Source: Myxococcales bacterium SG8_38
GTDB lineage: Bacteria > Myxococcota_A > Polyangia > Polyangiales > Houyiibacteriaceae
Assembly: GCA_001303415.1 (NCBI GenBank)
Contig: LJTN01000004.1
Location: forward strand, 6,067-70,066
Direction of reading: 5' to 3'
DNA length: 64,000 bases
Below the pieces are notes generated by a model. That model made no database searches. It was not told the DNA's origin and saw only the letters and a list, made by a program, of their open reading frames with translations. Below are positions 9,230 to 38,318 of this stretch, piece after piece. Numbering within the stretch: the first letter of the stretch is position 1; every line of letters begins with the position of its first letter. The position numbers and the translations under genes were made by a program.

Positions 9230-10780
9230 TCAGAAACGCTCGGATCGGCGGCCGTCCTTGTGGACCACGGCGTAGAGATCCTTCCGGCGGTCAGGCCAGG
9301 TTCGGACGGTGCCGGTGCCTTCGGTGCGCCGAAGAAGCGCGAGATCGAGGTCATGAACGATCATGGTTTCCACGTTGACCGTGCCCTGAGACGCGATGCC
9401 ATCGCGGGCAAAGTGAATGTCCGACGGCGTGAGGATCGCGGCTTGTCCGTAGTGGATGTCGGCGCCCTCGACTTGCGGCAAGTTCCCGACTGCGCCCGCC
9501 ATCACCACGTACATGTGGTTCTCGATCGCGCGCGCCTGCGCGCAGGCTCTCACCCGTACGTGACCAGAGCGAATGTCCGTGTTGTAGGGAATGAACAACA
9601 CGTCCGCTCCTTTGGCCTTGATGATTCGCACCCACTCCGGAAACTCGACGTCGTAGCAGATCGCGATGGCGATCTTGCCTCGGTCGGTTTCGAACACGTG
9701 GATGTCGCGTCCGGCCGTAATCCCCCACCACCGAGCCTCGGAAGGTGTGATGTGCGTCTTGTACTGCTTGTCGATTCGACCGTCACGGTGGAACAGAAAG
9801 GCGATGTTGTGGAGCCGGTTCTTTTCGACGGCGAAATGCGTACCGGCAATGATGTTCACGTTGTATTGGATTGCCATGTCGGTGAAGAACGAGATGTACT
9901 GATCGGTGAATTTGTCGAGCGCGCGTGCCGATTGTGCCGGGCTAGGCCCCGCGACGAGGTTGAGCAGCTGCGTGGTGAGCAGCTCCGGAAACAGCAAAAA
10001 GTCCACGCTGTAGTCGGCCGCGGAGTCGATGAAAAACTCGCACTGAGTCGCAAACTCCTCGAAGCTCGTCACGGGACGCATTTGGTACTGAACTGCCGCG
10101 ACGCGCATGGACCCCGCTGTTCTGCGCCTCGGGTCGGGGGGAACGAACGCAGGGTTGCGCCACTCCATCAAAACGGCGTGTCCGCTGGATGCCTTGTCGC
10201 TCGGAAGGTAGTTCTCGATCACTTCCCGTGCGATGAAGCCATTGGCGATCTGCGCGAGAATGACTGGATCGCGGATCTCCTTGTGCAGCACCTTGGCGAG
10301 ATACTCCTGGGGAGACATCTCGCTTGCATATCGGCTGTATCGGGGCATTCGTCCTCCGAACACGATGCCCCGCAAGTTGAGTCGCTGAGCGAGCTCTTTT
10401 CGCTCGTCGTAGATGCGGCGCGCGAAGCGCTGCCCTCGGAAGTCTGGGTCCACCGCGATGTCGATTCCATAGAGCGTGTCACCATCCGGATCGTGGCTGC
10501 GGATCATGCCGCCCTCGCATATGTCGTGGTAGGTGTGGCTCGCCGGTAAATCTTCGAGGTTGATGATGAGCGAGCTCGACGTGGCCACGACGCGTCCGTC
10601 CACCTCGACGCAAATCTGTCCCTCCGGAAAGAAATCGAGCTGGCTCGAAAACTGCTCCTTGGTCCAAGACTCGAGCTGCGGATAAGCACCTCGGTGCACG
10701 CGCTGCACGTCGCGGTAATCAGACTTCCTGAGCTGTCGTACGACGACCCGCCGCTTTCCTGGTGGTTGACTGTTGGCCAT
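9230..10780 (-). CDS. bifunctional GNAT N-acetyltransferase / carbon-nitrogen hydrolase (nitrilase superfamily) fusion protein
   Basis: N-terminal GNAT core (IAVDPDFRGQRFARRIY). The C-terminal CN-hydrolase has Glu (LLFPELL), Lys and Cys (IAIAICYDVEFPEW) contexts. Confidence 0.8.
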   Translation of the reverse strand: MANSQPPGKRRVVVRQLRKSDYRDVQRVHRGAYPQLESWTKEQFSSQLDFFPEGQICVEVDGRVVATSSSLIINLEDLPASHTYHDICEGGMIRSHDPDGDTLYGIDIAVDPDFRGQRFARRIYDERKELAQRLNLRGIVFGGRMPRYSRYASEMSPQEYLAKVLHKEIRDPVILAQIANGFIAREVIENYLPSDKASSGHAVLMEWRNPAFVPPDPRRRTAGSMRVAAVQYQMRPVTSFEEFATQCEFFIDSAADYSVDFLLFPELLTTQLLNLVAGPSPAQSARALDKFTDQYISFFTDMAIQYNVNIIAGTHFAVEKNRLHNIAFLFHRDGRIDKQYKTHITPSEARWWGITAGRDIHVFETDRGKIAIAICYDVEFPEWVRIIKAKGADVLFIPYNTDIRSGHVRVRACAQARAIENHMYVVMAGAVGNLPQVEGADIHYGQAAILTPSDIHFARDGIASQGTVNVETMIVHDLDLALLRRTEGTGTVRTWPDRRKDLYAVVHKDGRRSERF

Positions 10781-26817: not shown

Positions 26818-27863
26818 CAATGGCTCCCTTGCAAGACCGGCGGGGTCGCGGGGCGCCGTTGAAAGCCGTGGTCTGGCGAGGCGATCACGCCCAAGTGCAG
26901 GATTCGCGCACCGGTTTGGCCCACCGGATTGACGCTCTTGCCCACCACGATGCCGTCTTGTGGCGCGTGGTACTCGCGGATCACGTCCCCGAAGGCATTC
27001 CGAAGCACCGCGACGCGCTCACCGCGACTCACCAGCTCGGTGGGACGTGGAAGCACCTCCAAGAGCCCACCGCGATCGGTGTACATCCAGAACGAGCGCT
27101 CGCACAAGATGGGCTCGTTGCCTTCGGCCACGGGACGCTTTGGGAGCATGCCCGCCGCCGCGAGCACGGTCCGAAGGCCAATCCGCGACGATTTCACGAA
27201 GCTCGGCTGGAAACGCTGAGGGTCTCCCACCTCCAAGGTGATGGACGGAATCCCAAGATCCATCGCGGCGCCCCGCAGCGTGTAGTCCGACGGTGGATTG
27301 TGGACGATGATTTGCGGCCGTTGCAGGTAGGCCATGGTCGCCGTCGCGGGCTGCGTCATGTCGGCACGCACGTAAAGTGAGTTGACGCGGCCGAAGCTCG
27401 CCGTGTGCAAGTCGACCAAATAGTCGAAGCGTTTGACGATTCGGTCGAGGACTCGGTGTGCATACACCTCGGCGACGTCCCCATCCTCGCGCCCCGGGAA
27501 GATGTGATTCAGGTCACCGCCGTCGACGAACTCGCGTTGATGCCGATGAAGACCCGGCACGTTGACCACGACCACGGCCACGAGCGCACCCTGGAGCTGT
27601 CGCGGGTCGATGTGGTGCATCAGGTCGTGAATAACCCGGATTCCGTTGAGCTCGTTGCCGTGAACGGCAGCGGTCAGCCCGAAGACCGGACCATCGCGCT
27701 TGCCGCGCGCCACCAAGACCGGCAGCAGAATGTCTTGGGCCAGGCCATTGGCGACGAGATCGATGTAGAGGCGTGAAACCTCCCCCCGCGGAAAGTCCTC
27801 GATGACGAGCTCGCGATTCCGGAAGACCGGGCTTGTCGCGCCGTTGCGAAGGTCGCCTTTCAT
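26817..27863 (-). CDS. succinylglutamate desuccinylase/aspartoacylase (AstE/AspA, M14-like) family deacylase
   Basis: Zn-ligand contexts AAVHGNELNG and LVDLHTAS. ATG 27863 chosen as the start. Confidence 0.75.
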   Translation of the reverse strand: MKGDLRNGATSPVFRNRELVIEDFPRGEVSRLYIDLVANGLAQDILLPVLVARGKRDGPVFGLTAAVHGNELNGIRVIHDLMHHIDPRQLQGALVAVVVVNVPGLHRHQREFVDGGDLNHIFPGREDGDVAEVYAHRVLDRIVKRFDYLVDLHTASFGRVNSLYVRADMTQPATATMAYLQRPQIIVHNPPSDYTLRGAAMDLGIPSITLEVGDPQRFQPSFVKSSRIGLRTVLAAAGMLPKRPVAEGNEPILCERSFWMYTDRGGLLEVLPRPTELVSRGERVAVLRNAFGDVIREYHAPQDGIVVGKSVNPVGQTGARILHLGVIASPDHGFQRRPATPPVLQGSH

Positions 27864-27938
27864 CTGGGTCCGCGCAACTCTGACACCGCCCCGCAGCCCG
27901 CGCACGTGCCCTGGTCTCGGGCGCCGAAACGGCGCCAG

Positions 27939-27977
27939 TGCAAGCCTTGCACATGCAGTGAGGGCAAGTTTTGCACT
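27939..27977. promoter_or_regulatory. cluster of (T/G)GCA-N5-(T/G)GCA repeats incl. 15-bp palindrome GTGCAAGCCTTGCAC; candidate enhancer (UAS)
   Basis: Read directly: GTGCAAGCCTTGCAC at 27939-27953, TGCAgtgagGGCA at 27955-27967, and GGCAagtttTGCAC at 27964-27977. The core is the same as the sites at 32176-32228. Confidence 0.35.
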
Positions 27978-28026
27978 CGGCGGCCCCCCGAGCCTTGCTT
28001 TCTACGTTCTTGACTTCGATTCAATT

Positions 28027-28042
28027 TGGCACCGATTATGCA
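28027..28042 (+). promoter_or_regulatory. sigma-54-like -24/-12 element TGGCACcgattaTGCA
   Basis: GG-N10-GC spacing is correct. However, it overlaps ATG 28038 and also sits inside a sigma-70-like TTGACT-N17-GATTAT (28011-28039). Confidence 0.3.
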
Positions 28043-28682
28043 CGCGGGCGGCACCGTGATTCATCCATCCACAGAAGTGCGATACATCGATGAGGTCGTC
28101 GGTTTGGGAGTCTTCGCTACCGGCAGACTGGCCAAGGGAACCATCACCTACGTCTGGGATCCGCTCGAGATCGAGATCGCTCCCGAGGATCCGAGGCTCC
28201 AAGACCCCACTTTTGCGCCCATAATCGAGCGCTATTCCTACATCGACCCGAACGGCGTCCGCATCGTGAGCTGGGACCATGCCAAGTTCGTCAATCATTG
28301 CTGCCAAGCCAACACCATGAGCACCGGGTACGGCTTCGAGATCGCGATACGGGACATCGAAGCCGGAGAACAGATCACCGACGAGTACGGAATGTTCAAC
28401 CTCCCCGACGCCATGGAGCTTTGCTGCTCGAAAGGGCCCTGTCGCAAGAAGGTCGAGGCCGGTGACCTCGATCGCTACTACGCGCGATGGGACGCGCAGA
28501 TCAAGTCCGCGTTGAAGCTGGTTGAGCAGGTGGAGCAGCCCCTGTGGCCGCTGGTCGACGTGGGGACCGCGACGGCCGTCGAGCAGTTCGTGCGGTGGGG
28601 CAAAGGCTATCGCTCGGTCCGGGACCTGGAAGCGTTCAGCGGCGCTTGCGCCCAGGGGAACGGCGCCGCCTTATCGCAATGA
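28038..28682 (+). CDS. SET-domain protein (putative protein-lysine methyltransferase)
   Basis: GLGVFATGRLAKGTI, FVNHCCQANT and GEQITDEYG are SET signatures. The start is uncertain: both promoter readings predict a TSS downstream of ATG 28038, so GTG 28056 or GTG 28077 are alternatives. Confidence 0.75.
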   Translation: MHAGGTVIHPSTEVRYIDEVVGLGVFATGRLAKGTITYVWDPLEIEIAPEDPRLQDPTFAPIIERYSYIDPNGVRIVSWDHAKFVNHCCQANTMSTGYGFEIAIRDIEAGEQITDEYGMFNLPDAMELCCSKGPCRKKVEAGDLDRYYARWDAQIKSALKLVEQVEQPLWPLVDVGTATAVEQFVRWGKGYRSVRDLEAFSGACAQGNGAALSQ

Positions 28683-29463
28683 ACGTGAGGTCGTCGGGCT
28701 TGGAGGGCTCGCCGTCGGACGAGGCGGCCATTCGCTGCCGGCCCAAGGCAGCCAGCTCGGCGACGGCTCGGGGAAGCGGACCCTTCCGGACACGCTCGAC
28801 GATCTCGTCCAGGTGGAGATTGTCGCTCAGCCCATCGCTCGCCAGAACGACCGTGTCGCGAGGCGACAGCTCGAGAGCTGCACCAAGCTCGATACGCATT
28901 CCATGACCCCCGAGCAGATTGGATACGATGTGCAGGTCCTCGTGGTGCAATGCATCGCCCCGATCCAGTAGGCCGGCCTCGACCGCATACCCCACGGGCG
29001 AGTGTGGAATGGTGAGCCACTTGATCCGTCCGCGCTGACCCGTGACGAGCACCATGGAGTCCCCCGCGTGGTAGGCCCGCATGTGACTGCCCTGGATTTC
29101 GACCACCGCAAGCGTGGCGGCAGCGCCGGTGCCGAGCGCCGAGATGGCTCGATCGGCGGATTCGAAGCCGTTGATGATCGCCTCCCGAAGGTTTCCGAGA
29201 TCGCCTCCAAGCTTCGCCACCGAGTCGCAGACGGCCCGAACGGCGAGCGCTGCAGCCTCTGCGCCTCCCGGATGACCGCCGGCACCGTCGGAGACCACGG
29301 CGACAGCCGCCTCGTCGGCCAGCGATATCAGCGCTGCCGCATCCTCGTTTGGACCCTCGCGCCCCGGCTTGGGAATGCTGAGCACGACGGCTTCTCCAGC
29401 CCCGAGCTCGAACCGCTCGCCTTGGGTCATGTCCACATCCGTAAAGATGTGGGTCTCGCTCAC
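28636..29463 (-). CDS. PP2C-family Ser/Thr protein phosphatase
   Basis: NEDAA, VSDGAGGH and LASDGLSDN motifs. The GTG at 29463 sits behind GGGAGG and overlaps the kinase stop (GTGA). Confidence 0.8.
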   Translation of the reverse strand: MSETHIFTDVDMTQGERFELGAGEAVVLSIPKPGREGPNEDAAALISLADEAAVAVVSDGAGGHPGGAEAAALAVRAVCDSVAKLGGDLGNLREAIINGFESADRAISALGTGAAATLAVVEIQGSHMRAYHAGDSMVLVTGQRGRIKWLTIPHSPVGYAVEAGLLDRGDALHHEDLHIVSNLLGGHGMRIELGAALELSPRDTVVLASDGLSDNLHLDEIVERVRKGPLPRAVAELAALGRQRMAASSDGEPSKPDDLTFIAIRRRRSPGRKRR

Positions 29464-30320
29464 GGCGCCGACCTCCCGCCACGCGTCGAGCCCCGAAGGG
29501 CTCGCGGTTTGACGGCTTGGAAGGCCCGCTCCATCTGCACGCCGTCGCGATACCGCTTGCGCTCGCGTATCTCGATCGCCCGGCGGATGAAGCTGATGAA
29601 GTCCCGGCTGACCGTGCGGCGAAGGCGCTCCGCGCCCGGTAGCGGCCAGTCGAACGGCCACTCCGGAAGCTCCCCCGCGAACATGCGGTAAATCAACAAC
29701 CCCATCGAGAAGACGTCGGACCGAAAGGAGGGCTTCCCCATCGCCTGCTCAGGGGCCATGTAACCGACGGTTCCCTGTCCGGAGCCCATGATGGTTCGCG
29801 TTCGCAGCGCGACCTTCGCGATGCCGAAGTCGGCGAGCCGCACTACCCCGCCTGGAAACAAGATCACGTTGTCCGGCTTGATGTCACAGTGAATGATCCG
29901 CTCTTCGTGGGCGTACGCCAGTGCGGATAGCAACTGCTCCGTGTACGATAGCGCCGTTTTGGGCCCGAGCCGCCGGTGCAACCGGTCTGCGAGGGTTTGC
30001 CGTCCGAGCGGGGTCGCAATGACGAAGTATCCATCGATCATCATCGCGTTGCGTAGCGGCAGAATGTTTTCGTGCTCGAGGCGCGCGGTCAGACGAACCT
30101 CGCGCCGAATGAGGTTCAGCGACTCTTGGTCGAGCTGATCGAGGTCAGGAATCTTGAGTGCGACCGGCACGCCCTCGATCGTGTCGTAAGCCTCGTAGAC
30201 GGTGGCGAATGCCCCGACGCCGATTCGGCGGCGGACACGGTACTTGCCCAGCATCTGCCGCGCCTTGAGGGGCGGAGAGGCGGGTTTGCTTCCGGTCTTT
30301 CGAAGCCCGTCCCAGCGCAT
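29460..30320 (-). CDS. Hanks-type Ser/Thr protein kinase, catalytic domain only
   Basis: GVGAFATV, VALK, HCDIKPDN, DFG and APE motifs. ATG 30320 chosen (the ORF is open to 30512). No TM or sensor domain. Confidence 0.85.
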   Translation of the reverse strand: MRWDGLRKTGSKPASPPLKARQMLGKYRVRRRIGVGAFATVYEAYDTIEGVPVALKIPDLDQLDQESLNLIRREVRLTARLEHENILPLRNAMMIDGYFVIATPLGRQTLADRLHRRLGPKTALSYTEQLLSALAYAHEERIIHCDIKPDNVILFPGGVVRLADFGIAKVALRTRTIMGSGQGTVGYMAPEQAMGKPSFRSDVFSMGLLIYRMFAGELPEWPFDWPLPGAERLRRTVSRDFISFIRRAIEIRERKRYRDGVQMERAFQAVKPRALRGSTRGGRSAP

Positions 30321-30419
30321 GATGACCGGGCGCAAATCTGACACCTGCTCGGATTCTGCGCACGACCTTTGTGGCCGGCCGCCATGGACGGCCCCGAGAA
30401 CGCGAGCCATCCTTGCGCC

Positions 30420-31814
30420 ATGATGGCGCAGCAGACCGGCCGGGTCCTGGTCGTCGAAGGCGATGCGGAGGTTCAGTCCGAGCTCGAGGCTCAACTCACG
30501 GCGATCGGGCATATGGTGGACACGGCGCCCGACGGGGCCGAGGCGCTGGAGCTCGTGGAACGGTCGATGCCCGATGTGATCCTCGTGGAGCTCGAGCTCG
30601 AGGGCATGGATGGGTTCGAGTTCTTGCGGCAGGCCAGAGCCCTACTCCCTTCGGCTTCCTTCATCGCAATCGCAAGCTCCGGCTCGACCGACACGGCGGT
30701 CAAGGCGCTGGCCTCTGGGGCCGACCGGTGCCTGACCAGGCCGATTCGACCAGATGCGCTGGCCCTCGTCGTCGAGCGGTCGCTCGACAAGCCCATCCAC
30801 GCGAGGGATGCGATCAACGCCCGGGCGGAGGCTGCGGCGTCGTTTCCGACCACGCGACTCGATCACATCGTCGGGGCGCATCCCTCGATGCAGCGGCTAT
30901 TCAAACGAATGCTTCAGGCCGCCAAGAGCAGGTCGACGGTCCTGATCCAGGGAGAAACCGGGACAGGCAAAGAGCTGATTGCCAAGGCCGTGCACGAGCA
31001 CTCACTGCGCAGCGAGGGACCCCTGATCCGGCTGAACTGCGCAGCGCTCTCCGAAAGTGTCCTCGAATCCGAGCTCTTCGGGCACGAGAAGGGGGCGTTC
31101 ACGGGAGCCGTGACCCGGCGCAGCGGCCGATTCGAGCAGGCCGACGGTGGCACGCTGTTCCTCGACGAGCTGAGCGAAATGCCGCTTTCGGTGCAGGTCA
31201 AGCTGCTCCGCTTCCTTCAGGAGCGGGAGTTCGAGCGGGTTGGCGGCAACGAGACAGTCAAGGTCAACGTGCGGGTCGTCGCAGCGACGAACCGAGACTT
31301 GAGGACGCTGGTAGACGACGGGAGGTTCCGCGAAGATTTGTATTTCCGTCTGAAGGTCGTCGTCCTGGACGTGCCACCGCTTCGCGCGCGGCCGAGCGAC
31401 ATCCCCCTTCTGGCAGACTATTTCCTTCGCTTCTATTCGGAGGAGAACGGCAAGCATGTACGTGGCTTCACGGCGCGCGCTCGCGAGGCGCTGCTCGGCT
31501 ACCCGTGGCCCGGAAACGTCCGCGAGCTCCAACACGCCATCGAGCAGGCGGTGGTCCTCTGTGAAAAGGAGCTGATCGGTTCCGAAGACCTACCCATCCA
31601 GGCGCCTGATCCGGAGGTCGAGCCATTGAGCTTGCTCGTCCCGGGCGTGACCTTGGCCGAGGTAGAGCGGTATACGATCCTCAGAACCCTGGAGGCGGTG
31701 GGAGGGTCGCCAACGAAGGCGGCCGCGATTCTGGGAATCAGCAAGCGAACCATCCAATACCGGCTTCAGGAGTGGGGGGTGACCAAGCGAAACGCATGGC
31801 CCAACGAAAAGTGA
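30420..31814 (+). CDS. sigma-54-dependent transcriptional activator (NtrC family) with degenerate receiver domain
   Basis: REC-like N-terminus, then an AAA+ core with [14 protein letters not shown] and DGGTLFLDE, then a Fis-type [23 protein letters not shown]. The phospho-acceptor position is Glu57 (codon 30588-30590). Confidence 0.9.
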
Positions 31815-31826
31815 ATCGGGTGTGCG

Positions 31827-32069
31827 CTAGCGGCGGCGGCGCGTTGGCAAGACGTCATCGGGGCTCAATACGTCGAGAACTCCGTCGACGAGCAGAACGT
31901 GCTCTCGAAGGGCCCGACCGAGCTCGGCCGCGATAGGCGCAGCCTCGTCGAAACGCCCGGTCTCGATGCTTGCCTGCATGCTCTCAGTTCTCTCCAGCAG
32001 AAGGCGATTCTCGGTACGGATCTTCTGCACGACCTCAGGGGTGACCAAATCGAGCTGGGGACGCGTCAT
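31827..32069 (-). CDS. small helical hypothetical protein (80 aa)
   Basis: ATG 32069 lies 4 nt after GGAGAA (forward ttctcc, 32074-32079) and about 22 nt downstream of the predicted sigma-54 TSS. No family recognised. The longer 250-aa ORF version is rejected. Confidence 0.5.
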   Translation of the reverse strand: MTRPQLDLVTPEVVQKIRTENRLLLERTESMQASIETGRFDEAAPIAAELGRALREHVLLVDGVLDVLSPDDVLPTRRRR

Positions 32070-32100
32070 GGGGTTCTCCGCTTTGTCGAGCCCTAATGAG

Positions 32101-32116
32101 AGCAAGCGCCGTGCCG
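32101..32116 (-). promoter_or_regulatory. sigma-54 -24/-12 promoter CGGCACGgcgcTTGCT (minus strand)
   Basis: The reverse complement of 32101-32116 matches TGGCACG-N4-TTGCW except at the first base, with GG-N10-GC spacing. The SD and ATG of the 80-aa ORF follow. Confidence 0.6.
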
Positions 32117-32175
32117 TGCCAACTGAGCAATAACCGCCTGGAAAAGCTACCGAGAAAACTCGCCCGCGAGGGCTC

Positions 32176-32228
32176 GGTGCAAGTCCTGCATCCATCCCGC
32201 GGTACCCCGGTGCAGGTTCTGCACCGGG
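32176..32228. promoter_or_regulatory. two tandem GTGCA-N5-TGCA sites, candidate enhancer for the flanking divergent sigma-54 promoters
   Basis: Site 1 is GGTGCAAGTCCTGCATC (32176-32192). Site 2 is a perfect palindrome with 10-bp arms, CCCGGTGCAG-gtt-CTGCACCGGG (32206-32228). The centres are about 33 bp apart. Confidence 0.55.
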
Positions 32229-32298
32229 ACGCGGCTGGCATCCCGCCCGATCGCGAAATCGTCGTTGGCGGCGTGCCTTCAATCCGGCAGCCGACAGA

Positions 32299-32314
32299 TG
32301 GCACAGAACGTGCT
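32299..32314 (+). promoter_or_regulatory. sigma-54 -24/-12 promoter TGGCACagaacgTGCT
   Basis: GG-N10-GC spacing is exact. It lies 47 nt upstream of ATG 32361, and GAGGAA is at 32351-32356. Confidence 0.6.
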
Positions 32315-32360
32315 CAGACCTCTCGGTAGGGACTTTCCCAACAACAAAGCGAGGAACGTC

Positions 32361-32630
32361 ATGCCAATACGAGGTGACAGAACGAAGCGAGACCGTGATC
32401 GCCGCCACAGCGAGCTGGACTGGTTCGCGGAAGACCCGTGGTCCGACCCGGATCTCGCCTCGTTGGAGGACAGTCAAGACGACTGGGATCCCGAGTTGTG
32501 GGGAACGAGCGACGAGGCTTTGGACGACTGGGACGAAAGCGAAGAGGACGAAGAGTCGGACGAGGACGAGGACGAGCACGACGGATGGGGACCGGTTCGC
32601 CGACGCGGCAAACGAAAAAGCGACGATTGA
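32361..32630 (+). CDS. small hyper-acidic Trp-rich protein (89 aa), no family recognised
   Basis: ATG lies 4 nt after GAGGAA. The N-terminus is basic (RGDRTKRDRDRRH), the core is acidic with 6 Trp each flanked by D/E, and the C-terminus is basic (RRRGKRK). Confidence 0.6.
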   Translation: MPIRGDRTKRDRDRRHSELDWFAEDPWSDPDLASLEDSQDDWDPELWGTSDEALDDWDESEEDEESDEDEDEHDGWGPVRRRGKRKSDD

Positions 32631-32651
32631 TGGCCCTCCGAGCAGCCAACG

Positions 32652-33305
32652 CTAGCCCTGACCGACCAATCCCTGCACCTGTTTGAGCGCCTGCTCGTTC
32701 TCGACGAGCAGCAACAACAAATCTCCTTGCTGGACCCGAGTGTTGCCGCGCGCGAGCAGCACTTCCTCGCCCCGCACCACCGTGAGAATCAACGCCCCGT
32801 CCGGAAGGTTCAGCTCGCGTATCGAAACTGGATCGATTCCTTGCACTTCGAGCTCTTCGAAGCGCAAGCCTCCGCGAGTCACGAGGGAGAGATCGGGACG
32901 ACCGAATCCGTGCAACGCCGCTAGCATCTCGGCTGCAGCGGAGATGCTGGGTGTCACGATCCGCGCCACCCCGATCTCTTTGCAGGCAGCCCGCAAACCG
33001 AGATCCTTCAGCTTGACCATGACCGTGGGCACGTCGAAGCGTTTCGCGAGCATGGCGACGACCGTGTTGATTGCATCGGAGCTCGTGCTGGCGATCAGGG
33101 CATCTGCCTCTTCGATGAGCGCTTTTTGCAGGAGCTCTGGATTCGTCCCGTCGCCCTCCAAGACGAACGCGTCGAATTGCTCACTCAGATCCTCGCAACG
33201 CTCCGGATCACTATCGATCAGCACGATTTGATGTGCGCCACCCCGCGTCAGGTCTCTCGCAAGCTCGTAACCGATACTGCCGATGCCCACGATGATCACC
33301 CTCAT
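32652..33305 (-). CDS. trkA: Trk/Ktr potassium uptake system NAD-binding subunit
   Basis: MRVIIVGIGSIGYELA Rossmann motif plus a TrkA-C domain. The ATG overlaps the trkH stop (ATGA). Confidence 0.8.
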   Translation of the reverse strand: MRVIIVGIGSIGYELARDLTRGGAHQIVLIDSDPERCEDLSEQFDAFVLEGDGTNPELLQKALIEEADALIASTSSDAINTVVAMLAKRFDVPTVMVKLKDLGLRAACKEIGVARIVTPSISAAAEMLAALHGFGRPDLSLVTRGGLRFEELEVQGIDPVSIRELNLPDGALILTVVRGEEVLLARGNTRVQQGDLLLLLVENEQALKQVQGLVGQG

Positions 33306-34741
33306 CGCGACCTCCTGCGTAGCTTCCAGGTTGCTGGATAGAACACCACTAGCACGGGGATGACCTCGAGTCGCCCGGCCCACATCTGGAAGCTCAACAC
33401 GAGCTTGAGCCAAGCGGGCAGCGTGGCGTCCGTGATGCCACAGGAAAGTCCCACCGTTCCGACGGCCGAAGCGCTCTCGAACAACGCATCGCCCGGATTG
33501 AACCCAGCGAAGACGAGCGCAGCGCTGCCTGCGAGAAGCAGCGCGAGATAGGCCACGATGAAGCCGAGCAAGTGGCGCAGGGGCTCGGCCTCGATGGGCG
33601 TACCTGCGTACTTGAGCGCGATCCTGGCTTCTGCCGGCAACATCAGTCTGTGGATGGTCCATCTCATCAGGGTGAGCAGCACGAGAAATCGCATGATCTT
33701 CAGGCCGCCCGCGGTCGAGCCGGTCGAGCCGCCGATGATCATCCAGAGCGTCGTGAAGAATTTCCTCGTGGGCGACCATCCGGCTGGATCATCGAGCGAG
33801 AACCCAGTCGTGGTGATGGCACTCACGGTGTCGAAGGCCGCATGCCAACCCCTTCCCTCCAGAACAAAGAGCAGCGGCGCACCGGCCAGCACGACGATCG
33901 CGAGGGCCAAGATTTGGGGATCGCGCTCGGTCTCTTGATTCTGGCTCTTCCTGCGGCGCGCGATGCGCTGGTAGTTGGAGAAGCTCGTCGCGCCGAGAAG
34001 CATGCCCGCCATGGTGACGATGAGCACCAGTGGCTCGTTCACATAGAGACCGATGCTGGCTGCGTGAGGCGAGAACCCGCCGGTGGAGACCGTGGCCAGC
34101 CCGTGCAGCACGGCATCCTCTATCGGCACCCCCACCACGACGAGCGCCGAGCACACGGCGCCGGTCAGTAGTGCGTAGATCTTGAGGAGATCGCGAGCCG
34201 TCGAGCGCACGCTGCCCGCAATTCGCTCGTCTTCCGAGCCGGAGCCGTAGAGGCGAAAGCGAAAACCAGCGGGCCGAGTGGCGCTGAGCAGCGCCACCGT
34301 CAAGATGACGATGCCTGCGCCCCCGATCCACTGCATGTACGACCTAAGAAAGCGCAGCGTTCGCGGCATGTCTTCGATGGGCACCACGCTGAGCCCCGTG
34401 GTGGTGAAGCCAGACATGCTCTCGAAGAATCCGTCGATGAAAGGGGCGACGGGAAGGAAGGCAACTCCGCCGGCAATCGAGAAGATGGGATAGGCAAGCG
34501 CGGTCACCAAGAAGGCTTCGCGCGCGGCCAACTCCCTCGCGAGCAATGCGCGCCCCCAATGGCCGAGACCCAATGCGAGCACGCTCAGACCAGAAAGCAG
34601 TCCCGCGACCACGAACTCGCCGCTCACCCAACCGACAGCCGCGGGCGCCAACAACAGGCCCCCCATCATCCGGATCAAACCGGCGAGCTGCCCCAAGATG
34701 GCGGCGAGATCGAGGGGTGTGAGATAGTCTCGCAGCGACAT
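33302..34741 (-). CDS. trkH: TrkH/KtrB-family potassium transporter
   Basis: 479-aa polytopic protein with repeated pore-loop motifs (SGFTTTGLS, VSTGGFS, ITTTGFS, VGTVGLS). Confidence 0.85.
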   Translation of the reverse strand: MSLRDYLTPLDLAAILGQLAGLIRMMGGLLLAPAAVGWVSGEFVVAGLLSGLSVLALGLGHWGRALLARELAAREAFLVTALAYPIFSIAGGVAFLPVAPFIDGFFESMSGFTTTGLSVVPIEDMPRTLRFLRSYMQWIGGAGIVILTVALLSATRPAGFRFRLYGSGSEDERIAGSVRSTARDLLKIYALLTGAVCSALVVVGVPIEDAVLHGLATVSTGGFSPHAASIGLYVNEPLVLIVTMAGMLLGATSFSNYQRIARRRKSQNQETERDPQILALAIVVLAGAPLLFVLEGRGWHAAFDTVSAITTTGFSLDDPAGWSPTRKFFTTLWMIIGGSTGSTAGGLKIMRFLVLLTLMRWTIHRLMLPAEARIALKYAGTPIEAEPLRHLLGFIVAYLALLLAGSAALVFAGFNPGDALFESASAVGTVGLSCGITDATLPAWLKLVLSFQMWAGRLEVIPVLVVFYPATWKLRRRSR

Positions 34742-34800
34742 GGCCCGAGAGGGTACACTGAAGAAGCACTTTGACTTTCGCAATTTCGAAGACAACGCTC

Positions 34801-37199: not shown

Positions 37200-38318
37200 A
37201 TGAAAAAGGCTCGCCGCAAGAACCGTCGCTCCCGGCACTATCTGGATCTCGGAAACCGTTACCGGGTGGGGTCCCCGCCAGGCGTTTTGGAGCCTCATCC
37301 GGAGGCCGCTCCGACGGTCATTCGCAGAATGGTCTACGACGCGGAGGGCTTCAGTGAAGAGCGTTTCGAAAAGTCCATCCCCAAGAACAAGCTCAGCCGC
37401 GAAGCGAACCGGGTCCTTTGGCTCGATGTAGTCGGCCTCGGAAGCGCCGAAGCGCTCAAGCACATCGTCACGACGTTCAATCTCCACGCGCTCGCCGTCG
37501 AGGATGTCCTTCACCAGCGCCAGCGTCCCAAGGCCGAGGTATACGGAGACACGCTGTTCATCGTCGTCAGAATCCCGCACCTTAACGAAGGCTCCACGAC
37601 ATTCGAGCAGGTGAGCATGTTCCTCGGCCGGGATTTCGTCCTTACGTTCCAAGAAGAAGAGGGGGATTGCTTCGACTCGGTGCGGGAGCGCGTCCGCCGC
37701 AGGCAGGGTCGCGTTCGGCACGGAGGCGCCGACTACCTCGCATATGCGATTCTCGACTCCGCCATCGACCAGTACCTTCCGTTGGCCGATTCGATGGGCG
37801 ACCGCATCGACGAAATGGAGCGGGAGATTCTGTCGAAATCCGATTCGTCCGTGGTACAGCGCTTGCTTGATCTTCGCGGCGATCTCAATCATTTGCGGCG
37901 GAACCTGACGCCGGCCCGTGATGCGGTTGCTGCGATGGCGTCCATCGCGGGCACGTTGGTCTCCGATGAGACCAAGATCTACCTCCGAGATTGTCAGGAC
38001 CACATCGTACAGCTCAACGAGGTGACCGAGAGCTACGGCGACACGGTTTCGGCGCTGGTCTCCATACATCTGAGCTTGGCTAGCCAACGTTTGAACGAAG
38101 TGATGAAGGTGCTCACGGTCTTTGCGGCGCTCTTCATGCCTTTGAGCTTCATCGCAGGCGTGTACGGCATGAACTTCGACCCGGACGCGTCGCCCTACAA
38201 CATGCCCGAGCTCGGTTGGGCATACGGTTATCCGCTCGTACTCGTGGTCATGGCCGTTCTTGCAGGGAGCTTGGTCTTGTACTTCCGGCGTCGGGGTTGG
38301 CTCGGGGGCCCACCCTAG
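37200..38318 (+). CDS. corA: CorA-family magnesium/cobalt transporter
   Basis: YGMNF signature between two C-terminal TM helices. Confidence 0.85.
   Translation: MKKARRKNRRSRHYLDLGNRYRVGSPPGVLEPHPEAAPTVIRRMVYDAEGFSEERFEKSIPKNKLSREANRVLWLDVVGLGSAEALKHIVTTFNLHALAVEDVLHQRQRPKAEVYGDTLFIVVRIPHLNEGSTTFEQVSMFLGRDFVLTFQEEEGDCFDSVRERVRRRQGRVRHGGADYLAYAILDSAIDQYLPLADSMGDRIDEMEREILSKSDSSVVQRLLDLRGDLNHLRRNLTPARDAVAAMASIAGTLVSDETKIYLRDCQDHIVQLNEVTESYGDTVSALVSIHLSLASQRLNEVMKVLTVFAALFMPLSFIAGVYGMNFDPDASPYNMPELGWAYGYPLVLVVMAVLAGSLVLYFRRRGWLGGPP

Follow-up and report, generated by a model that had tools for sequence, protein, structure and literature searches.

The question raised by this locus is how two divergent genes are switched on from a single intergenic region, and by which protein. 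The locus lies within a stretch of 64,000 nucleotides (nt) from the uncultured, Sandaracinaceae-like Polyangiales myxobacterium Myxococcales bacterium SG8_38 (contig LJTN01000004.1, positions 6,067 to 70,066), which is referred to here as the window and is numbered from its first letter. An intergenic region of 290 bp was found to contain two sigma-54-type promoters pointing outward, one towards a gene for an 80-amino-acid (aa) protein on the minus strand and one towards a gene for an 89-aa protein on the plus strand, with two palindromes in between. It is probable that both promoters draw on these palindromes as a shared enhancer and that the enhancer is served by the NtrC-family activator encoded next to it, judging from the sequence and its comparison with related loci. 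The layout itself is conserved base for base in relatives and is very likely real.

The putative minus-arm promoter, CGGCACGGCGCTTGCT, is read from 32116 to 32101 on the minus strand, and the putative plus-arm promoter, TGGCACAGAACGTGCT, occupies positions 32299–32314 of the plus strand. Both are of the −24/−12 type with exact GG-N10-GC spacing, and each has one mismatch to TGGCAC-N5-TTGCW over its 11 specified positions. Placing the transcription start site (TSS) 12 nt past the C of the −12 element gives predicted starts at ~32090 and ~32325 and predicted leaders of ~21 nt (minus) and ~36 nt (plus), each arm having a Shine-Dalgarno sequence and an ATG: GGAGAA (32079 to 32074) before ATG 32069 on the minus strand, and GAGGAA (32351–32356) before ATG 32361 on the plus strand. 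The pattern GGCAC-N5-KTGCT has two matches in the 64 kb, both of them here, compared with 0.34 in shuffled sequences, where one shuffle in 100 reached two. A scan of positions 31600–32800 found no sigma-70-like promoter or terminator-like site, and the sole match in an Rfam scan of 27500–33000 was at chance level and lay inside the activator gene.

The interval between the promoters carries two 15-bp palindromes with the consensus GTGCA-N5-TGCAC, three helical turns apart. The first upstream activating sequence (UAS1, 32177–32191, centre 32184) is an imperfect palindrome, GTGCAAGTCCTGCAT, within GGTGCAAGTCCTGCATC (32176–32192). The second (UAS2, 32206–32228, centre 32217) is a perfect 10+3+10 palindrome, CCCGGTGCAG-gtt-CTGCACCGGG, with the core GTGCAGGTTCTGCAC at 32210–32224. 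Both fall in a 28-nt direct repeat with a periodicity of 33 bp, and no additional GTGCA-N5-TGCAC site within one mismatch was found in the interval. Measured from the predicted TSSs, the centre of UAS1 is at −94 on the minus arm and −141 on the plus arm, and that of UAS2 at −127 and −108, respectively. The arrangement is that of a bacterial enhancer, in which at least two dyad-symmetric sites lie ~80–150 bp upstream with helical phasing. In the whole window, GTGCA-N5-TGCA gave seven strand-matches at four sites, with 0.39 expected and none of 100 shuffles reaching seven. A preliminary description of this DNA had reported both promoters with their GG-N10-GC spacing and outward direction, their Shine-Dalgarno sequences and start codons, both palindromes, a separation of about three helical turns (measured as 33 bp), a distance of roughly 90–110 bp from each site to the nearer predicted TSS, and a gap of 12 bp between the stop of the activator gene and that of the minus-strand open reading frame (ORF) (the measured ends being 31814 and 31827); all of these agreed with the present measurements in sequence and position.

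The window was aligned with 11 orthologous loci (L001–L011), whose activators are 75–96% identical to that of the window. All 11 have two outward sigma-54-type motifs with TGCA-N5-TGCA sites in between. Across the 12 loci, the invariant columns of the intergenic region comprise AGCAA (−12) and G(T)GCC (−24) in the minus promoter, the half-sites of both palindromes, and, on the plus side, TGGCAC and TGCT in the promoter along with GAGG (Shine-Dalgarno) and ATGCC (start) of the gene. Majority fractions were 0.87–1.00 for the motif blocks, compared with 0.47–0.50 for three spacers and 0.57 for the leader of the plus gene; within the minus promoter, AGCAA reached 1.00 and GTGCC 0.97, the flanking spacer being at 0.47. 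This footprint coincides with the blocks of both promoters and so bears out the earlier reading of the region as a sigma-54 promoter pair.

Spacing was measured in 19 distinct loci, gathered after the collection-wide pattern scan described below. The two palindromes are 33 or 34 bp apart in 18 of these loci, and UAS1 lies 93–99 bp from the minus TSS. The distance from UAS2 to the plus TSS is 106–110 bp in 16 loci and 96, 99, and 74 bp in the other three, the 96 and 74 bp cases being shorter by 11 and 33 bp. As these differences approximate one and three helical turns, they are what would be expected from face-of-helix constraints on a looping activator. The spacing is kept although the sequence of the spacers diverges. 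Two near-invariant columns, G 32249 and A 32258 (in a GAAA context), also stand out between UAS2 and the plus promoter, where the spacer is otherwise unconserved; they do not form an integration host factor (IHF) consensus.

The gene beside this region (30417–31814, plus strand) encodes the likely cognate enhancer-binding protein, a member of the NtrC family consisting of a pseudo-receiver, an AAA+ sigma-54 interaction domain in which the GAFTGA motif is present, and an HTH_8 domain. The Pfam domains found were Response_reg, Sigma54_activat (E = 5.5e-72), AAA_lid_14, and HTH_8 (E = 5.6e-10). The gene adjoins the enhancer in every window-like locus and converges on the minus arm. In data holding one genome per species, the closest activators are those of uncultured Polyangiales/Sandaracinaceae-like metagenome-assembled genomes (MAGs), with 96% identity for L001 and 75–88% for L002–L011, while paralogues reach ~60% at most. 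The protein scores below every NCBIfam equivalog cut-off, with AtoC and ZraR scoring best. PexR of M. xanthus was rejected as a relative on account of its GAF domain and its motif, CACCG-n6-CGGTG, which is a different one.

Alignment of the receiver (encoded at 30417–30830) to those of NtrC and PleD indicated that the acidic pair Asp-Asp is replaced by Glu-Gly, the phospho-acceptor Asp by Glu, the conserved Thr by Ala, and the conserved Lys by Arg. The acceptor Asp is absent in 12 of 12 orthologues (Glu in nine, Gly in two, Ala in one), in which the Thr and the Lys are replaced as well; the Asp is kept in 52 of 65 paralogue loci, where the DD-D-T-K set is almost always complete. These residues set the activator apart from a conventional, phosphorylatable response regulator. 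With Asp, Thr, and Lys all missing from the receiver, control by a histidine kinase is unlikely and the activity of the protein is probably set otherwise. Its input may be a partner protein (as FliX is for FlbD), Ser/Thr phosphorylation, or plain expression level.

The preliminary description had asked whether the motif is restricted to a few loci. The full GTGCA-N5-TGCAC palindrome occurred seven times in the 774 kb of paralogous Polyangiales loci that were scanned (0.58 per 64 kb), and four of these occurrences are two tandem pairs in L062 and L065, beside a distant Asp-less relative of the activator. These relatives are 55–57% identical, and next to them two tandem GTGCAGAAGTTGCAC sites and a sigma-54 promoter stand in front of different genes. 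In L065 (7598–9352; similarly L062, 7570–7608), two GTGCAGAAGTTGCAC sites at a distance of 24 bp come after the activator gene; downstream of the L065 promoter (CTGGCACGTAACCTGCT) are genes for a lysine-2,3-aminomutase-like radical SAM protein and an S58 peptidase.

A composite pattern (palindrome, gap of 12–22 nt, second site, gap of 50–80 nt, GGCAY-N6-TGC) was then scanned in 185,579 genomes, where it matched 105 stretches, ~20 of them of the activator/80-aa/89-aa locus type. These ~20 include the already known L001, L002, L004, L006–L008, and L010, the others being from further MAGs with activators 77–90% identical. On the large contigs of relatives (0.4–1.95 Mb), the pattern matches only at the activator/80-aa/89-aa locus, for instance on CAVOVB010000001.1 (1.95 Mb), CAWFPD010000004.1 (0.9 Mb), and CAVWBW010000013.1 (0.78 Mb). 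A dozen other matches, in other phyla, lie beside unrelated enhancer-binding proteins. The pattern was also matched in several Thiobacillus, Rhodanobacter, Acinetobacter, and Spirochaetales genomes (L085–L189), and the unrelated enhancer-binding proteins beside other sites of the composite pattern showed 35–47% identity. Enhancers of the TGCA-N5-TGCA type may be used by other activator clades.

A third unit of the same kind was identified 4 kb upstream of the divergent pair, with a footprint conserved in nine aligned loci. It consists of a second putative enhancer, GTGCAAGCCTTGCAC (27938–27952) and GGGCAAGTTTTGCAC (27962–27976), 24 bp apart, followed 50 bp downstream by a third predicted sigma-54 promoter, TGGCACCGATTATGCA (28027–28042, plus strand), and by a gene with a Pfam SET domain (28056–28682, plus strand), the GTG start of which was placed by homology to L008. 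The content of this unit varies: L008 has genes for an RRM protein and a SET protein and then the activator, L004 has the RRM gene and then the activator, and L005 has the SET gene and then the activator. The RRM protein, of 89 aa (L004, 2350–2616; L008, 4993–5259), is absent from the window. As the unit reads into the activator gene in L004, L005, and L008, autoregulation is plausible in those genomes.

Genes for a PP2C phosphatase and a Ser/Thr protein kinase (28636–30512, minus strand) are located between the SET gene and the activator gene in the clade of the window and are absent from that position in L004, L005, and L008. Their products could be an input to the Asp-less activator. Two further motifs in the window were inspected. 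The perfect palindrome GTGCACGCGCTGCAC (10694–10708) was considered as a further site of this type and treated as probable chance, since it is located within ORFs and the one motif in its vicinity that resembles a promoter (10641) is weak and lies upstream, on the wrong side. A sigma-54-like match with one mismatch, TGGTACAGCGCTTGCT (37852–37867), is located inside long ORFs of both strands with no palindrome nearby.

The two small targets of the divergent pair are real genes under purifying selection. The minus-arm gene (31827–32069, minus strand), conserved in 11 aligned loci, encodes the 80-aa protein, with dN/dS values of 0.05–0.23, and the plus-arm gene (32361–32630, plus strand) encodes the 89-aa protein, which is acidic and Trp-rich, has the motifs LDWFAEDPW and DGWGPVRRR, and gave dN/dS values of 0.17–0.37. 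No Pfam, NCBIfam, or PADLOC match was found for either protein. Profile searches of 5.8 billion proteins returned 136 clusters for the 80-aa protein and 102 for the 89-aa protein, all hypothetical and without a Pfam domain; those clusters with a source name were all from Polyangiales/Myxococcales MAGs, several with adjacent locus tags. Both proteins are uncharacterised and, by these searches, lineage-restricted.

An AlphaFold2 model of the 80-aa protein (predicted local distance difference test score, pLDDT, of 85) has two long antiparallel helices forming a generic helical hairpin. Foldseek found nothing in the PDB at E ≤ 0.001, and its best-ranked structures (AvrRps4, ClpC coiled coil, designed bundles) were uninformative. 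The acidic protein has an invariant M-P start, DWF-EDPW and W-G-P-x-R motifs, an acidic middle, and Lys/Arg-rich basic ends, and it is probably disordered. Short direct repeats in its gene at 32466–32589 (GACGACTGGGA twice and GACGAGGA-type runs) encode reiterated D-D-W-D/E stretches, and the acidic middle varies in length between orthologues (78–97 aa). Downstream of the plus gene, and converging on it, are genes for TrkA and TrkH (32652–34795). Genes for ion transport were also seen near the acidic gene elsewhere, namely CorA with an MscS-type channel (L084, 4266–6644) and a Na+/H+ exchanger (L083, 804–2033), and the recurrence of such neighbours may be coincidence.

The gene content of both arms differs in some relatives. 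In L003, L084, L109, and L187, the minus promoter is separated from the 80-aa gene by an additional gene of 239–250 aa; its product was found to have a PcrA/UvrD-type Tudor domain (Pfam) in L003 (7673–8422, minus strand) and L084 (2979–3695, minus strand), the copies of L109 and L187 being known by tblastn only. In L003, the stop of the inserted gene overlaps the start of the next. In the more distant genomes L081 (3154–4339), L082 (3104–4264), and L083 (83–420), the SET gene is followed immediately, in the same orientation, by the acidic gene, which has retained a sigma-54 promoter of its own (TGGCATGRAARGTGCT). The acidic protein is in this way tied to the SET protein, and the 80-aa protein to the activator.

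From these elements a mechanism can be proposed. Dimers of the NtrC-family activator would bind both palindromes through their HTH_8 domains and would assemble there into an active AAA+ ring. DNA looping would bring this ring to the sigma-54 holoenzyme in the closed complex at either promoter, and the remodelling that follows would switch on the 80-aa and 89-aa genes together. The activator probably also drives the SET unit 4 kb upstream, and in some relatives, where a SET-type unit would transcribe the activator gene, positive autoregulation would result.

Several observations weigh against this proposal. The plus promoter has GTGCT rather than TTGCT in its −12 region, and the first base of the minus promoter is C rather than T. 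No IHF-type site (WATCAANNNNTTR, up to two mismatches) was found between the promoters or between the enhancer and the promoters. The GTG of the SET gene is only 14 nt past the last base of the third promoter, which would give a near-leaderless mRNA in the window and in L001. The acidic-gene promoter of L081–L083 lacks a neighbouring palindrome within one mismatch; the closest pair is ~800 bp upstream, so that a local shared enhancer is not obligatory. Finally, myxobacteria encode many enhancer-binding proteins, few of which have known sites or targets, and given this number adjacency alone does not prove that the activator is the cognate one.

The sharing of the enhancer is the first point on which another reading can be put forward. 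Both promoters could be real with UAS1 serving the minus arm only and UAS2 the plus arm only, the locus then consisting of two independent units that abut. Each palindrome does lie ~94–108 bp from its nearer promoter, and the sites can drift independently, since UAS1 is weaker in several loci (two mismatches in L008 and L009) and UAS2 is weaker in L011. However, 18 of the 19 loci keep the two sites at the fixed spacing of 33–34 bp, as would be expected for the nucleation of one oligomer, and enhancer-binding proteins are hexamers built from dimers on adjacent sites. The SET unit, moreover, has a single promoter and also has two sites. A hint in the same direction comes from L010 (7321–7653), where the minus arm looks decayed: its −24 element is GGCGC, and the minus ORF has no ATG, GTG, or TTG before the conserved region, has lost the usual stop, and extends 68 nt into the activator gene. 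The two palindromes have been kept there nonetheless, which hints that both serve the plus arm and lends slight support to sharing. Separate use of the two sites is considered unlikely, and we infer that one enhancer is shared by both arms.

The identity of the protein that would bind the palindromes is open to a similar objection, namely that a different regulator with its gene at another place, be it a repressor or a further enhancer-binding protein, does the binding and the adjacent activator is a bystander. Paralogues of this family are many in myxobacteria and two loci were found on single contigs; in addition, the SET and acidic genes of L081–L083 keep sigma-54 promoters with no activator gene within the fetched flanks. 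Such a distant regulator is nevertheless rather improbable, for all window-like loci have the activator gene beside the enhancer, the SET-type unit continues into that gene in L004, L005, and L008, and the distant Asp-less relative has the same motif pair alongside, in front of unrelated genes. That the promoters themselves are chance matches or of another class, with the conserved blocks being sigma-70 operators, RNA elements, or similar, was also weighed. Sigma-54-like hexamers are fairly frequent in GC-rich DNA, and 76 loose matches were counted in the 774 kb of paralogue loci. Against this, the conserved columns of the 12 loci coincide exactly with the GG and GC blocks at their 10-nt spacing, and the sigma-70, terminator, and Rfam scans and the shuffle controls given above offer it no foothold, so that it is regarded as highly improbable. 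Dependence of both arms on sigma-54, with a shared enhancer and the adjacent protein as its activator, is thus the reading preferred here.

A more far-reaching version of the preferred reading would make the locus a self-contained circuit. In this version, the Asp-less activator would be governed not through phosphorylation but by one of its own small products, the best candidate being the 80-aa hairpin as a FliX- or PspA-like partner; the hairpin gene is always tail-to-tail with the activator gene. The SET methyltransferase, the RRM protein, the PcrA/UvrD-type Tudor protein, and the acidic protein would be the outputs, and together they might make up a myxobacterial module, so far undescribed, that acts on RNA polymerase, RNA, or the nucleoid. 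The proposal is speculative and improbable as it stands.

What is gained is a comparatively validated cis-regulatory map for uncultured Polyangiales, comprising the motif GTGCA-N5-TGCAC, three predicted sigma-54 promoters, and a small regulon, and covering lineage-specific uncharacterised proteins next to an activator that is not phosphorylatable in the usual way. The assignment of a motif to an activator is useful because few myxobacterial enhancer-binding proteins have known sites or targets. Its value lies in a testable combination of activator, motif, and regulon in an uncultured lineage, together with an odd set of targets; the design will not surprise specialists.

The geometry of the plus arm resembles that of the glnAp2 promoter of enteric bacteria, where two dyad-symmetric sites for NtrC, with centres near −140 and −108, are separated by about three helical turns; the plus-arm centres here are at −141 and −108. 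However, glnAp2 is a single promoter, and the half-sites of NtrC are spaced otherwise than in GTGCA-N5-TGCAC. NtrC is phosphorylated on Asp54, whereas the corresponding residue of the window activator is Glu.

Divergent arrangements are also known. In Salmonella and E. coli, one enhancer-binding protein, ZraR, controls the divergent sigma-54 promoters of zraP and zraSR from a single intergenic region (PMC4987338). The locus described here likewise has an outward promoter pair in one region, with one set of putative activator sites lying between, and both loci have an arm that codes for a small protein; ZraR is also among the best-scoring named relatives of the window activator, but at 403 bits against a ZraR equivalog cut-off of 760. 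The two systems differ in that one zra arm encodes the kinase and the activator, whereas here the activator gene is not part of either arm but converges on the minus one, and the unit includes no kinase gene. Furthermore, ZraR is a phosphorylatable response regulator and the receiver of the window activator is without Asp.

In Caulobacter crescentus, flaN and flbG are divergent units with sigma-54 promoters and ftr enhancer elements, according to the title of Mullin and Newton (1993) as cited in PMC3096577. The receiver of their activator FlbD is without key phosphorylation residues, and the protein is active unphosphorylated and controlled by the small partner FliX (PMC3096577). Divergent sigma-54 units with enhancers and an activator whose receiver has lost its phosphorylation residues are common to both systems. 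However, the Caulobacter system belongs to flagellar biology and has another recognition sequence, no FliX homologue is found here, and control by a partner is only a hypothesis in the present case; the window activator scored 353 against the FlbD equivalog cut-off of 750. In Desulfovibrio vulgaris, the two divergent sigma-54 operons orp1 and orp2 are co-activated by OrpR (DVU2106) at palindromic sites, with IHF required (PMC3897727). Divergent sigma-54 operons, one activator, and palindromic sites are again shared, but IHF sites are needed there and none is detectable here, and the activator family and the target genes differ.

The design is therefore already known from zraP/zraSR, flaN/flbG, and orp1/orp2, and no principle changes. 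The present locus differs from these systems in the absence of a detectable IHF site, the convergent orientation of the activator gene, the recognition sequence, the Asp-less subfamily of activators, and the target genes.

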